Below, one piece after another: positions 7,919-13,038 of a stretch of 64,000 nucleotides of DNA. A program made the position numbers and the translations under genes. The notes beneath the pieces were generated by a model. That model had not been told where the DNA came from. It saw only the letters and a list, made by a program, of their open reading frames with translations, and did no database searches. How positions within the stretch are numbered: position 1 is the first letter of the stretch; each line of letters starts with the position of its first letter. Source of the DNA: Dehalococcoidia bacterium (GTDB lineage: Bacteria > Chloroflexota > Dehalococcoidia > UBA2979); assembly GCA_963667465.2 (NCBI GenBank), contig CAXXDN010000001.1:800001-864000 (forward strand), in the 5' to 3' direction.

Positions 7919-8893
7919 GTGCCGCCGATGTCCTCCGCGAGCCTTGCCGCAGACCGCGCCGCCATCGTCGCGCTTGTCCACGCCTACCCGCGGCTGCAGG
8001 ACGCGGCGGACTTCGAGGGCATCGGGAAGCTGTTCGCGAAGGGCCGCTTCTCCTCGACGCTGGGCCGCTCCCTGGGCGGGGCCGAGCTGACGGCCGACCG
8101 CGCGCGCGGTATCCGCCTGCACGAGGACGGGACCCCGCGCACGCGCATCCTCACCAGCAACCTGCTGATCGCCATCGACGCCGCGGCCGGCACGGCCCGC
8201 ACGCGCTCCTACTACGCGCTGCTCAAGCAGCCCCCCGGCGAGCCGCTCAGCGTCGTCGGCGCCGGACGCTACTACGACGAGTTCGTGCGCGAGGACGGCG
8301 CGTGGCGCTTCGAGGAGCGCGTCAGCAACTTCGACCTTTCGGGCGACGTGGGCGGCTTCCTGCGCGCCGCACCGCGGCGGCAGCCCTCGCTGGCGCTGCG
8401 CGGCCCGCCCGCGGCCGAGCTGCGGCCGTTGCCCCCGCCTCCGGACGCGGCGGACGCGATCGAGGCGCTGATCTACACCTACGCCGAGCGGATCGACCTC
8501 GCGGACTTCGCGGGCGTCGGGGCGCTCTTCGCGCACGGGCCGTTCGTCGGCGAGACGGCGGATGGCGGGAGCTACGAGCTGCGCGGCGAGGGGCTCGCGA
8601 AGGGCCTGCGCGGTGCGGTCCGGCTCTACGAGGGCAATCCGCGCACCAAGCACGTCACCACCAACGTCGCCGTCGAGGTGGACGAGGCGGCCGGGAGCGG
8701 CCTCGCGCGCTCCTGCTTCGTCGTCCTGCAGCAGACGCCGGAACTGCCGCTGCAGCCGATCATCAGCGGTCGCTACCGCGATCGTTTCGAGCATGTCGGC
8801 GGCGCCTGGCGCTTCGCGGAGCGGCGTGTGCAGACGGACATGGAGGGCGACCTCAGCGCCCACCTCCGCGCGGGCGGCGGCACGGGCGCTTGA
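7919..8893 (+). CDS. Tandem SnoaL/NTF2-like domain protein
   Basis: Two YA..D.ADF...GRY.D.F....GAWRF units. Confidence 0.85.
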   Translation: MPPMSSASLAADRAAIVALVHAYPRLQDAADFEGIGKLFAKGRFSSTLGRSLGGAELTADRARGIRLHEDGTPRTRILTSNLLIAIDAAAGTARTRSYYALLKQPPGEPLSVVGAGRYYDEFVREDGAWRFEERVSNFDLSGDVGGFLRAAPRRQPSLALRGPPAAELRPLPPPPDAADAIEALIYTYAERIDLADFAGVGALFAHGPFVGETADGGSYELRGEGLAKGLRGAVRLYEGNPRTKHVTTNVAVEVDEAAGSGLARSCFVVLQQTPELPLQPIISGRYRDRFEHVGGAWRFAERRVQTDMEGDLSAHLRAGGGTGA

Positions 8894-8939: not shown

Positions 8940-9884
8940 ATGACGAAGAGCCGCGACGCGATCCGCGATCTGATGATGCGCTACGCGCGCTTCACTGATC
9001 TTGCCGACCACGACACGGTCGGCGAGATCTTCGCGCACGGCCCGTTCCGCTCGTCCCTCGGATCCTCGCACGCCGGCGCCGAGATGGCGGCGAACCGCAA
9101 GCGGCGGATCCTCACGCATGACGGTTCGCCCGGCACGCGCCACGTCCCGACCAACATCATGATCGACATCGACGAGGCTGCCGGGGCGGCACGCGCCCGC
9201 TCCTACTTCTCGCTCTTCCAGGCGACGCCGACCATGCCGCTGCGGCTGGTCGGCAGCGGCCGCTACTACGACCGCTTCGAGCGCATCGAGGGCGAGTGGT
9301 GCTTCACGGACCGCCTGAGCATGCTCGACAGTCGCGGAGACCTCTCGCAGCACATCCTCGGTTACCAGGCGAGCGAGTTGCCGTACGACGTGCCGGTGCT
9401 TGGACCTCCGCTCGAGGAGATTCCACCGATGCCGGTGCCGGACGAGCTGCACGCGGCGGTCGAGACGCTGATCTTCAGCTACGCGGAGCGGATCGACCTC
9501 GGAGACTTCGAGGGGGCCGGCGAGATCTTCGCGCACGGCGGCCGGCAGCATGGGCCGGAGGGGACGCCGCTCGGCGGTCCGGCGCTCGCCGAGGCGCTGC
9601 GCAGCAGTTTCCGCATCCACGACGGCAGCCCGCGCACGAAGCACGTCACGACCAACGTGCTGATCGAGCCGGGCGAGGAGGCGGGCACGGCAGCAGCACG
9701 TTCCTACTTCACCGTCATGCAGGCGACCCGCGGTCTGCCGCTCCAGATCATCGCTGTCGGTCGCTACCACGACGCTTTCGAGCGCGTCGACGGCGCCTGG
9801 CGCTTCCGTTCGCGGGTGATCCTGCTCGACCATCAGGGCGAGATCGAACACCATGTGCCACCGGGCTCGGCGCTGCTTCGCTAG
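8940..9884 (+). CDS. Tandem SnoaL/NTF2-like domain protein (paralog of the upstream gene)
   Basis: Same two-domain layout; ATG at 8940 (MTKSRDAI). Confidence 0.85.
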   Translation: MTKSRDAIRDLMMRYARFTDLADHDTVGEIFAHGPFRSSLGSSHAGAEMAANRKRRILTHDGSPGTRHVPTNIMIDIDEAAGAARARSYFSLFQATPTMPLRLVGSGRYYDRFERIEGEWCFTDRLSMLDSRGDLSQHILGYQASELPYDVPVLGPPLEEIPPMPVPDELHAAVETLIFSYAERIDLGDFEGAGEIFAHGGRQHGPEGTPLGGPALAEALRSSFRIHDGSPRTKHVTTNVLIEPGEEAGTAAARSYFTVMQATRGLPLQIIAVGRYHDAFERVDGAWRFRSRVILLDHQGEIEHHVPPGSALLR

Positions 9885-9919: not shown

Positions 9920-10819
9920 GTGGATGTAGGCATCCTGCTTCCCCAGGCCGGCGATCGCGCCACCCGCGAGGTGGTGCTGCGGCACGCCCGCGCCGCCGAG
10001 GAGGCCGGCTTCGATTCGCTCTGGACCAACGACCACGTCGTCTTCCCTCGCGAGTACCGCTCGCGCTACCCGTACAGCGCGGACGGCAATCTGCCGGGGC
10101 GGGTCCACATCGACGCCTCGCTGCTGGAGCCGTTGACGGAGCTGGCCTTCGTTGCTGGCGCAACGAGCCGCGTGCAGCTCGGCGTGGCGGTGCTGGTGCT
10201 GAACATGCGGCAGGCCGTGCTGCACGCGAAGATCATGGCCACGCTCGACCACCTCGCCGGCGGGCGCTTCATCCTCGGCGCGGGGATGGGCTGGGCGAAG
10301 GAGGAGTTCGAGGTGCTCGGCATGCCCTCGGACCGCCGCGGCGCACGTTTCGAGGAGAGCCTGGAACTGACGCGCAAACTCTGGACCGAGGACTGGGTCG
10401 ACGGCTTCCACGGCGACACCTACGAGGTCGACGGCTGGACCTCGCGGCCGCACCCGCCGCGCCACGTGCCGATCTGGATCGGCGGCGACAGCCCGCAACA
10501 GATGCGCCGCATCGGCGAGCTGGCGGATGGCTGGCTGACGCACGGCAACTACCTCGACAACGCCGGGGAGGCGATGCAGCCCGCCCGCGAGGCGGCCGAG
10601 CGAGCCGGTCGCGACCCCGCTGCGCTCAAGATCGGGATGACCGGCATCGCGCTCCTCGCGAGCGATCGCCTGGAGCAGGTGCGGGAACGGCTGGGCCGAG
10701 CGCGCGAGGCGGGCGTCGACCACGCGATCGTCGGCCTGCACCCCGCCCAGTTGCTCGACGCGCCGGACCTGATGCGCCGCTTCGGTGAGGACTACCTCGC
10801 CGCGGCGAAGACCGGCTGA
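9920..10819 (+). CDS. LLM-class F420-dependent oxidoreductase (Rv2161c-like)
   Basis: GFDSLWTNDHVV, RVQLG, LAGGRFILGAG.GW, PIWIGG. Confidence 0.9.
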   Translation: MDVGILLPQAGDRATREVVLRHARAAEEAGFDSLWTNDHVVFPREYRSRYPYSADGNLPGRVHIDASLLEPLTELAFVAGATSRVQLGVAVLVLNMRQAVLHAKIMATLDHLAGGRFILGAGMGWAKEEFEVLGMPSDRRGARFEESLELTRKLWTEDWVDGFHGDTYEVDGWTSRPHPPRHVPIWIGGDSPQQMRRIGELADGWLTHGNYLDNAGEAMQPAREAAERAGRDPAALKIGMTGIALLASDRLEQVRERLGRAREAGVDHAIVGLHPAQLLDAPDLMRRFGEDYLAAAKTG

Positions 10820-10844
10820 GCGCGGACGGGCGCCGGCGAGGGCG

Positions 10845-11153
10845 ATGGAGCTCGAGATCACGGCCGCGGCGGCCGAGCTGGCGCGTCGCAGGGGCGGCGA
10901 GTTCGCGCTGGACTTCATCACGCCAATCGGCTGAGGCGGCGTCCTCGCTGTGCCGGTCGACACCTACCTCAAGGGCAAGAATCTCACCCGCTACGAGAGC
11001 GTCCGGCACCACGACCTGACAGTCCACGTCGCACCGGCGCTGCTGCAGTGGGCAAGCGCCGTGCGCGTCGACGCGGAACGCGTCCTCTTCTTCTGGCGTC
11101 GCTTCACGGTCGCGGCGGACCACCGCCACCAGCCGACCTGACAGCACTCGTAG
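10845..11153 (+). CDS. Candidate small selenoprotein with two in-frame UGA (Sec) codons, 102 aa
   Basis: GAGGG-N-ATG 10845. MELEITAAAAELARRRGGEFALDFITPIG-UGA(10932)-GGVLAVPVDTYLKGK...HRHQPT-UGA(11139)-QHS-TAG. A SECIS-like hairpin follows each UGA. Confidence 0.7.
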
Positions 11154-11193
11154 CCCCGCCGGAGGCGGGGGACGGGGGCGAGGGCGGTCGCGG

Positions 11194-12045
11194 CTACATG
11201 CGCGCGATCAGGTCGCGCGAGATGCGCTCCAGCGTGCGCCGCGAGGACGGCACGTCCGGGTCGGTGATCAGGATGTTCAGGCGCGAGACGCCAAGCTCCT
11301 CGAGACGCTGCGCCAGCTCCAGCTCGGGCGGCACGCCGGCGCTGATCTCGACGTCGTCGGGGTCGCGGCCATGTGCCTCGGCGGTGCGGCGCGCCTCGGC
11401 GATCAGCTCGTGCCAGGCGCGGCCGAAGACATGCGGGAAGAAGCCGGCGCCGTACTTTCCGGCGCGCCGCGCCGCGGGGATCGAGTGCCCGCCGATGATG
11501 AACGGCACGCCGCCCGGCTGGACCGGCTTGGGGTCGCAGGCGAGGTTGGAGAAGCGCACCAGTTCGCCCTCGTAGCTCGCCACGGGCTGCGTCCAGAGGG
11601 CGCGCATTGCCTCGATGCACTCGTCCGTGCGCTTGCCGCGGCGCTCCCAGGGCACGCCGATCGCCTCGAACTCCTCGCGCAGCCAGCCGACGCCGATGCC
11701 GAGATCGATGCGGCCCTCCGAGTAGACGTCGAGCGAGGCGAGCTGCTTGGCGAGCACCACCGGGTTGCGCTGCGGGAGGACGAGGACCGAGGTGCCCAGG
11801 CGCAGCGTCTTCGTCTTCGCGGCGACGAACGTGAGCGTGACGATCGGGTCCGGGATCGGCGCGTCCTCGTAGGGCATGCGCTCGGCGTAGGGGTAGTCCG
11901 AGTCGTGTCCCTGCGGGATCACGACGTGGTCGCTGGTCCAGAGGGTGTCGAAGCCGCAGTCCTCGGCGGCCTGGGCGAAGCCGGCGAGGAACTCGGGCGA
12001 GGTCACCGGCTGCTCGTTGAAGTCGACCGTCACTCCGAAGCGCAT
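11194..12045 (-). CDS. LLM-class F420-dependent oxidoreductase
   Basis: GFDTLWTSDHVV, LRLGTSVLVLPQRNP, GIGVGWLREEF. Confidence 0.92.
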   Translation of the reverse strand: MRFGVTVDFNEQPVTSPEFLAGFAQAAEDCGFDTLWTSDHVVIPQGHDSDYPYAERMPYEDAPIPDPIVTLTFVAAKTKTLRLGTSVLVLPQRNPVVLAKQLASLDVYSEGRIDLGIGVGWLREEFEAIGVPWERRGKRTDECIEAMRALWTQPVASYEGELVRFSNLACDPKPVQPGGVPFIIGGHSIPAARRAGKYGAGFFPHVFGRAWHELIAEARRTAEAHGRDPDDVEISAGVPPELELAQRLEELGVSRLNILITDPDVPSSRRTLERISRDLIARM

Positions 12046-12192: not shown

Positions 12193-13038
12193 ATGACGGC
12201 GGGGGCAGTGCTGGACGCGAGCGATGCGACGTTCGCGACGGACGTGATCGAGCGCTCACACCAACTGCCGGTGGTGGTCGACTTCTGGGCGCCCTGGTGC
12301 GGCCCCTGCCGCGTGCTCGGCCCCACCCTCGAAACGATCGCCTACGAACGCGCGGGCGAGGTGCAGCTCGTCAAGATCAACGTCGACGAGAACCCCGGCG
12401 TCGCCACGAGCTACCAGGTGCAGGGCATCCCGGCGGTCAAGGCCTTCCGCGACGGCGAGGTGGTCAGCGAGTTCGTCGGCGCGCTGCCCGAGCCGCAGGT
12501 CCGTGGATTCTTCGACTCGCTCGTGCCGACCGCCGCCGACCAGGCCGTCGCGGCCGCCCGGCACGCGATGCAGAACGGCCAGCCTGGCGCCGCGCGGCTC
12601 CATCTGGAGCACGCGCTCGAGCAGGATCCCGACCACCGCGGCGCCTCGGCGGCGCTCGCCGCGATCCTGCTCGCCGACGGAGCGGTCGCCCGTGCGCGCG
12701 AGCTGGCCGAGCGCTTCCCCGGCGATCCCGCCGCCGCGAGCGTGCTCGCGCAGCTCGCGTTCCGCGACGAGGCCGGGGACGAGCCGCGCGAGGCTCTCGA
12801 GACGCGGCTGGAGGCGGACCCGGACGACGCCGAGGCGCACTACCGGCTCGGCTGCCTGCTGGCGGCGGCGGCCGAGTGGCGGGACGCCCTCGAACACTTG
12901 CTGGCGACGGTGCGGCTCGATCGGGGCGTCGCGGACGACGGCGGACGGCTGCGCATGCTGGACGCCTTCACGCTGCTCGGCGACGGCCACGAGCTGACGC
13001 GCGGCTACCGCCAGCGCCTCACGAACGTGATCTTCTAG
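12193..13038 (+). CDS. Thioredoxin-TPR chaperedoxin (YbbN/CnoX-like)
   Basis: VVDFWAPWCGPC followed by TPR-like C-terminal domain ending YRQRLTNVIF. Confidence 0.9.
   Translation: MTAGAVLDASDATFATDVIERSHQLPVVVDFWAPWCGPCRVLGPTLETIAYERAGEVQLVKINVDENPGVATSYQVQGIPAVKAFRDGEVVSEFVGALPEPQVRGFFDSLVPTAADQAVAAARHAMQNGQPGAARLHLEHALEQDPDHRGASAALAAILLADGAVARARELAERFPGDPAAASVLAQLAFRDEAGDEPREALETRLEADPDDAEAHYRLGCLLAAAAEWRDALEHLLATVRLDRGVADDGGRLRMLDAFTLLGDGHELTRGYRQRLTNVIF

Follow-up and report, generated by a model that had tools for sequence, protein, structure and literature searches.

Is a short reading frame in a 374-base gap between two convergent genes of a Dehalococcoidia bacterium only the piece that gene callers leave of a whole gene, one that is read through two in-frame UGA codons? 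The gap lies in a stretch of 64,000 nucleotides (assembly GCA_963667465.2, contig CAXXDN010000001.1, positions 800,001 to 864,000 of the forward strand; here called the window, with positions counted from its first letter), between two luciferase-like monooxygenase genes (PF00296) at 9920-10819 (+) and 11194-12045 (-). An original prediction, made from the letters alone, placed here an unannotated protein with two selenocysteine (Sec) residues, each UGA being followed by a hairpin like a bacterial selenocysteine insertion sequence (SECIS) element. That reading survived each refutation test that was run. On the comparative evidence given below, 10845-11153 is very probably a real, unannotated gene for a protein with two selenocysteines, U30 and U99.

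The coding sequence (10845-11153, +) runs from ATG at 10845 to TAG at 11151-11153. It is interrupted solely by TGA at 10932-10934 (+; UGA1, predicted Sec30, motif P-I-G-U-G-G) and at 11139-11141 (+; UGA2, predicted Sec99, motif H-R-H-Q-P-T-U-Q-H-S), and a direct read of the window sequence found the predicted coordinates of the frame, both TGAs and the stop to be correct. Translation with TGA as U gives 102 residues, MELEITAAAAELARRRGGEFALDFITPIG-U-GGVLAVPVDTYLKGK...ADHRHQPT-U-QHS. A Shine-Dalgarno-like GAGGG, seen in the same direct read, stands 2 nucleotides (nt) ahead of the ATG (10838-10842, +) and may serve as ribosome-binding site; in the alignment of the loci from the genus a purine-rich G run is retained at its position. 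The list of open reading frames (ORFs) shows only a 49-residue and a 63-residue piece in the gap. The latter starts with GTG (10950-11141, +) and is the gene callers' substitute for the whole gene, as had been predicted; the database protein P0002 is that piece. As the G+C content of the window is about 72%, an open frame is weak evidence alone, and what lifts the gene above chance is that relatives have kept the frame, the two TGAs and the two hairpins. Identical 441 bases are present in three assemblies or runs from two studies, among which may be the source sample.

A genome that uses Sec at these codons would be expected to hold the machinery for it. The genome holding the window (2.97 Mb in 2 contigs, 93.6% complete) contains selA (517 bits), selB (299 bits) and selD (358 bits; G000:C1:106747-107682, L001, outside the window), as well as a gene for tRNA-Sec (selC; 93 nt, 77 bits) that ARAGORN calls as tRNA-SeC with anticodon TCA. 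All four exceed their family cut-offs. The selD gene carries an in-frame TGA of its own, so SelD is probably itself a selenoprotein in this genome. No sel gene is present within the 64-kb window, in agreement with the original prediction; they are located elsewhere on the two contigs.

Relatives of the read-through protein were sought in 41 related genomes (G000 included). The gene was found in 11 of them, all of the same genus (10 of 18 other species), and in none of the 22 genomes outside the genus. All 12 loci of the genus have two in-frame TGAs at matching places and the tail [Q/R]-H-[S/G]-TAG. One of these genomes, G017, carries two identical gene copies with their flanks (G017:C3:1044813-1045115, L030, and G017:C4:778331-778633, L032), which may be a duplication or an assembly artefact. 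A wider survey with one genome per species gave 100 relatives, of which 80 were kept (L033-L112); L033-L043 are probably from the same genomes as the loci of the genus survey. The 80 loci come from metagenome-assembled genomes labelled Dehalococcoidia/Chloroflexota, Acidimicrobiia/Acidimicrobiales and Nitriliruptoraceae, that is, from the two phyla Chloroflexota and Actinomycetota.

Site 1 is TGA in all 81 sequences (the window and the 80 loci), invariably 8 codons upstream of VDTYLKGK, and a metagenome scan added 14 more loci, 13 of them with TGA at this site. Site 2 is of two kinds. In 36 sequences, the window included, the end reads H-x-H-x-P-T-TGA-x-H-(x)-stop, and in 44 loci it reads H-x-H-x-x-x-Cys-x-H-stop or, in subgroups, ...YRDPSTC[T/A]I or ...GASCQIGG; one locus (L086) is truncated by the end of its contig. 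UGA2 aligns residue for residue with the Cys, and the His two positions on is retained in frame. When TGA is read as C, C30 and C99 are invariant columns of a 51-sequence alignment, and Cys is present at both sites in the full-length database relatives P0022-P0027, P0030, P0146 and P0147. The homologs thus carry Cys or UGA where the original prediction had looked for them, and frame and residues are kept across both UGAs, with coding conservation on both sides. Judged by this alignment, site 2 is a classic Sec/Cys pair. A tree was built from 76 distinct proteins, without the window and without L110, whose N-terminal part diverges. It is based on few columns and leaves many forks open; on it the Sec-type C-terminus requires three changes and clusters in a single clade of 40 rows (34 Sec, 6 Cys) in which Chloroflexota and Acidimicrobiia are mixed.

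What stands downstream of UGA2 may be read in two ways. Directly past the TAG, in the 3' untranslated region, lies the predicted hairpin CCCCGCC-GGA-GGCGGGG (11154-11170, +), its stem beginning at +16 and its loop at +23 from the U of UGA2. It has -13.6 kcal/mol, and the 42-nt fold around it is much more stable than expected by chance (z -3.2, matched by 1 of 200 shuffles). For Sec99 this would be a second SECIS element. It would equally suit a transcription terminator, in which case only UGA1 would be Sec, UGA2 would be a real stop and the protein would end ...HRHQPT: the hairpin is GC-rich, stands at the 3' end of the gene and faces the convergent gene at 11194-12045, the fragments of the gene callers all end at PT, and the tail after UGA2 is just 3 residues long. 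The relatives speak against this. A hairpin of -6 kcal/mol or better, beginning 13 to 22 nt from the U of UGA2 and thus at or barely past the true stop, occurs in every one of the 35 distinct Sec-type sequences and in 13 of 42 distinct Cys-type ones. Since Cys-type genes would need a terminator equally, the terminator-only reading has little force. In 34 of the 35 Sec-type sequences, as against 6 of the 42 Cys-type ones, the loop is led by G or includes GU (GUC, GGUC, GGU, GUU). The mean best energy, counted over perfect stems only, is -11.2 kcal/mol for the Sec type and -5.3 kcal/mol for the Cys type (Mann-Whitney p 1.6e-7, with kin that are not independent).

The distance of the hairpin from UGA2 is fixed, with the loop at +21 to +28, and no U tract follows the hairpin of the window. 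Site 2 reads TGA in every one of the 36 Sec-type sequences, whereas the true stops after U-x-H vary (TGA 16, TAG 13 and TAA 6 among the distinct sequences), and the Cys form also uses all three. UGA2 aligns exactly with the Cys of the 44 loci, where the tail ends C-x-H-stop or as in the subgroups. More than 12 different stems occur, e.g. CCCGCC, GAGCC, GGUGCCC, CUCGUCGA, CUCACCG, GUCCGGC, GGCGUCG and CGCGCCC; with stems so widely different, it is the structure rather than the sequence that appears to be conserved. The terminator-only reading, which the original prediction had itself named as a possible refutation, is therefore very improbable, and UGA2 is read here as a second Sec codon. Bacterial SECIS elements lie inside coding regions according to a 2026 review of prokaryotic selenoproteins (PMC13188914); a position behind the stop would be necessary for any Sec so near the C-terminus.

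The hairpin after UGA1 is conserved in another manner. In the window it consists of GUGCC (10950-10954), the loop GGUC (10955-10958) and GACAC (10959-10963), i.e., 10950-10963 (+) within the coding sequence, with the loop 21 nt past UGA1 as predicted; the refinement to be made is that the stem is imperfect. Bacterial SECIS elements are reportedly defined, in a rule that goes back to Zhang and Gladyshev in 2005, as a stem-loop closely 3' of the UGA with a G in the apical loop, and both hairpins have this form. The SECIS element of E. coli fdhF is similar in its GGUC loop and in the distance of that loop. Nearly all sequences of the family read GAG GUG UCG GUC GAC ACC U downstream of UGA1, which gives a consensus stem of 7 bp (AGGUGUC/GACACCU) and a GGUC loop at +24 to +27 (U of UGA = 1). 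Synonymous-site entropy is 0-0.17 bits at codons +5 to +10, as compared with 0.65-1.7 bits at nearby invariant residues (Gly, Ala, Asp, Tyr, Leu, Lys), both over 80 distinct sequences; this collapse of synonymous variation argues for selection on the RNA and not on the protein alone. V-S-V-D-T, the residues encoded by the hairpin, are relaxed in the relatives with Cys at site 1.

The helix has 95.6% paired cells in 71 distinct sequences, with a single compensatory change (G-C to A-U, in L092). An outer pairing of UGAGG with CCUCA, noted in the original prediction, is possible in 88.7% of cells and shows no compensatory change, and in a combined test of the hairpin and the outer pairing 92.7% of cells were paired, with covariation no more than in shuffles. 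The second pair from the loop is U-A in most lineages (Ser, UCG), C.A in the genus of the window and three others (Pro, CCG) and G.A in one group of Acidimicrobiales (Ala, GCG). At this stem codon (10953-10955 in the window, and its counterpart in relatives) a change in the protein is traded against RNA pairing at a single base.

Translation would start at 10845. At UGA1 the hairpin in the coding region, with its GGUC loop 21 nt downstream, would recruit SelB and Sec-tRNA(Sec), and at UGA2 the GC-rich hairpin behind the TAG would do the same; three residues would then be added before the TAG is reached. From the sequence evidence we infer that Sec is actually inserted at both codons. It might be supposed instead that neither UGA is translated, and that the locus is a dead gene or yields only the GTG-started fragment of 63 residues, the one form that databases list; copies of the gene can decay, as shown by the locus L157 (396-629, on a metagenome contig), which has GGA at site 1 with an internal stop and a disrupted N-terminus, and is thus probably a decaying copy, its first SECIS sequence being intact. 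Against this supposition, the 29 codons ahead of UGA1 encode a protein sequence that is kept in two phyla, while their synonymous sites vary normally; they match positions 1-29 of the NF041239 profile (see below) and supply the first strand and helix of the predicted fold. Six database pieces are exactly this N-terminal part and end at the UGA, and the 80 loci are free of frameshifts and other stops except for L110, with its divergent N-terminal part, and the truncated L086. Absence of translation through the UGAs is thus hardly credible, and read-through of both remains the preferred reading.

Several observations weigh against read-through with Sec at both sites. Gly at site 1 makes L157 an exception to the Sec/Cys rule, and so does P0003, an otherwise intact database protein of 97 residues (65% identical) that has Gly at the position of Sec30 and ends HRHQPT; its Gly may be a real variant, a sequencing error or a recent change of TGA to GGA. 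Covariation in the first hairpin is no greater than in shuffles, given the one compensatory change, and the support for this element is its conservation. In the window, moreover, the stem of this hairpin has the C.A mismatch from the Pro codon and on its own folds no better than shuffles (z 0.10), and the GGA loop of the second hairpin is without the U typical of most relatives. A search of sequencing runs found no RNA run holding the stretch, which would also fit an untranslated gene. A reading of the kind of genetic code 25, with TGA as Gly, had been prompted by the Gly variants and was ruled out, as the upstream gene ends in TGA and the full Sec machinery is present in the genome.

To which family would such a protein belong? 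Its sole NCBIfam match is NF041239, 'CC/Se motif family (seleno)protein' ('Moor_selen_rel'), with 28.9 bits and an expectation value (E) of 8.9e-7. The match covers residues 1-89 on positions 1-88 of the 91 of the profile and so runs across UGA1, and its score misses the curated cut-off (40 bits). Each of the 51 aligned members matches over the whole length of the profile (best E 8.2e-11); among nine full-length relatives of the clade, eight score below the cut-off (18.7-37.1 bits) and one reaches 40.1, while proteins with the G-C-C-G motif score 57-71 bits. The vicinal C-C or C-Sec motif of the family (G-C-C/U-G, as derived from the name of the family and from P0111, P0123, P0131 and P0140, members that exceed the cut-off) is absent, the window having G-U-G-G and the clade G-U/C-[GSTNR]-[GK]. 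By these scores and motifs the clade thus appears to be a sister group of the NF041239 family that is mostly missed by current naming rules, most of its members being below the cut-off. No match to TIGR01911, the HesB-like selenoproteins, was obtained at E up to 10, and the UxGP of that family is absent, the window reading U-G-G-V. The read-through protein and three relatives have no Pfam match at E up to 10 in the release scanned, which lacks PF28096; the latter is a precomputed Pfam label on database relatives. NF049953 ('protein DG', motif GUxG), a model of 172 positions, was considered and rejected, with no match in the genome.

The read-through is annotated in no source examined. A search with the family profile found 125 clusters at 50% identity in a library of 1.84 billion representatives. 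C-terminal pieces starting directly behind site 1 make up 98 of these, and N-terminal pieces no longer than 31 residues another 6; 14 clusters are full-length and have Cys at site 1 (those of the G-C-C-G type included), 3 are large and unrelated-looking, and 4 are other pieces. At 90% identity, in a collection of 5.8 billion clusters, 111 of 114 matches are pieces, and all names are 'hypothetical protein' except one evident misnomer. P0002 is stored together with many look-alikes of 62-69 residues. Annotation misses the gene, and members are stored in these two large protein collections almost entirely as truncated 'hypothetical' pieces. Predicted Sec forms thus appear far to outnumber Cys forms at site 1.

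The fold was modelled with AlphaFold2 from the 51-sequence alignment (mean predicted local distance difference test (pLDDT) 85.5, predicted template modelling score 0.76). Foldseek gave E. coli SufA as best match (2d2a, E 1e-4, template modelling score 0.64), followed by IscA 1x0g, 1r94 and 1s98, HI1723 and AQ_1857. In a VIA-align search over 48,161 chains the top 7 were all of the IscA/SufA fold (Z 9.2 to 5.2), with the next at Z 3.0. With this clear gap in VIA-align and the agreement of both searches, the modelled protein folds like the A-type iron-sulfur carriers (IscA/SufA/HesB), and the resemblance to HesB/IscA-like and CC/Se-motif proteins noted in the original prediction is supported by the fold searches and by the NF041239 match. 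Alignment by hhalign to 19 IscA-type proteins of the same class sets the column of Sec30 on the Cys of GGGCSG (E 9e-4, weak), which weakly suggests that Sec30 takes the position of the first cluster-binding Cys of IscA/SufA. The three-ligand pattern C ... C-x-C is absent; its first ligand is matched by Sec30 in this weak alignment. Ordinary IscA-type genes of PF01521 are present elsewhere in the genome. Points that weigh against this part of the reading are that the probability given by hhalign is just 23%, that the PF01521 profile does not match the window protein at E up to 10, and that confidence in the model is low for the C-terminal tail (pLDDT 68 and 47 in the last two blocks). A profile search of PDB sequences likewise gave no match at E up to 10.

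The roles proposed for the protein are less certain than the gene itself. Sec30 would lie in the loop that carries the first cluster ligand of IscA/SufA, and Sec99 on a flexible, His-rich tail (H93, H95, H101). Among the candidate ligand or redox residues only the two chalcogen positions never vary, and the two may therefore be expected to act together. Quite possibly, though short of probably, a metal ion or an iron-sulfur (Fe-S) cluster is bound by Sec30 and Sec99 with help from the tail histidines, perhaps between the subunits of a dimer. The histidines are absent in the subgroup ending ...YRDPSTCTI or ...GASCQIGG, which weakens a His-based metal site and leaves the two chalcogen positions alone invariant. 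A reversible Se-Se bond (Se-S in the Cys type), or a persulfide or perselenide relay, would need neither metal nor cluster and is the main, though tentative, alternative. It would suit the placement of one Sec in the protein body and of the other in a flexible tail, which is familiar from resolving-Cys systems. DsrR, a protein of sulfur oxidation with the IscA fold, is among the best structural matches (Z 8.5), and most uncharacterised selenoproteins are read as redox proteins in the part of the review on this subject (PMC13188914). Speaking against a redox protein are the lack of a motif of the CxxC or UxxC type and of a thioredoxin fold, the best structural matches, which are cluster carriers, together with the weak profile alignment that puts Sec30 on the ligand Cys, and the retention of H-x-H...U-x-H in most members.

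The surroundings of the gene give no functional lead. When all ORFs within 3 kb of the 81 loci were clustered, no neighbour family was common beyond single lineages, and no redox partner gene is conserved nearby, which counts against a redox protein. The luciferase-like flanking genes recur in 16 closely related loci only, and the neighbours in other lineages include aldo/keto reductase, adenosine deaminase, VanY and CN hydrolase. With histidines missing in a subgroup and no conserved neighbour, neither the metal nor the redox reading is strongly preferred. Rather unlikely, as we see it, is the more specific idea of a selenium-ligated counterpart of the A-type carriers. In it Sec would be nearly obligatory at the first ligand position, and the second Sec or Cys, on the His-rich tail, would complete an Se2(His)n site that serves for a metal, for an Fe-S or Fe-Se cluster or for the hand-over of selenium, e.g. 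to SelD. If true, it would mean a dedicated step of chalcogen or metal trafficking specific to selenium-using Dehalococcoidia and Acidimicrobiia, one that appears in none of the published selenoprotein lists consulted.

Two further features of the window were observed on either side of the gap. Two genes downstream, at 12193-13038 (+), a thioredoxin domain is fused to TPR_19/TPR_20; this adjacency is not conserved in other lineages. Upstream stand two tandem genes, 7919-8893 (+) and 8940-9884 (+), each with two SnoaL_4-type domains and a Ring_hydroxyl_B-like match, which look like a local duplication.

Taken together, the gene very probably belongs to a Sec-dominated clade with two Sec sites, sister to a known (seleno)protein family and sharing the A-type carrier fold. 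The clade is spread over Dehalococcoidia/Chloroflexota, Acidimicrobiia and Nitriliruptoria, and Sec, as predicted from the TGA codons, rather than Cys is the usual residue at site 1. The review lists 119 families in its Table 1, and proteins with more than one Sec are 'a small subset' of these (PMC13188914). None of the families as given in that table has G-U-G-G and a second, C-terminal Sec; those that come closest are the CC/Se motif family NF041239 (CxxU, 1 Sec) and the HesB-like TIGR01911 (UxGP, 1 Sec) (PMC13188914). A full-text literature search did not find a description of the subfamily, which the BSepDB family table (PMC13326102) may list, and the main-text passages of PMC1794560, PMC2398784 and PMC5029168 do not describe the Moorella protein. 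If both Sec residues are real, a double-selenocysteine subfamily would join the short list of multi-Sec proteins, and it would be an unusual one, with many more Sec than Cys forms at site 1. It would also provide a natural pair of SECIS elements on one small mRNA, one in the coding sequence and one past the stop, which is convenient for studies of SelB. Selenium at the ligand position of an iron-sulfur-carrier fold would make selenium-metal or trafficking chemistry testable in 102 residues.

How does the protein compare with known systems? With NF041239 it shares the length of about 90-105 residues, the N-terminal pattern MxLxxTxxA...GG...D and a chalcogen residue after a Gly near residue 30, and that superfamily is already known to contain selenoproteins, as is proposed for the clade of the window. 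The clade differs in having G-U-G-G (G-C-G-G/K in Cys forms) instead of G-C-C/U-G, and in its second, C-terminal Sec or Cys in H-x-H-x-x-x-U/C-x-H, with a putative SECIS element after the stop; two Sec are predicted for the window protein, while NF041239 is listed with one in Table 1 of the review (PMC13188914). Like the HesB-like selenoprotein TIGR01911, as described in the review, the predicted product is a small selenoprotein of HesB/IscA type with a Sec close to the N-terminal third, but TIGR01911 has UxGP and one Sec whereas the window protein has U-G-G-V and, as predicted, two. With IscA, SufA and ErpA the modelled protein has the fold in common (VIA-align Z 9.2 to 8.0) and, like them, a further chalcogen residue in a flexible C-terminal tail; where IscA and SufA have C-x-C-G-x-S-F at this end, the window protein has a single Sec or Cys position flanked by His.

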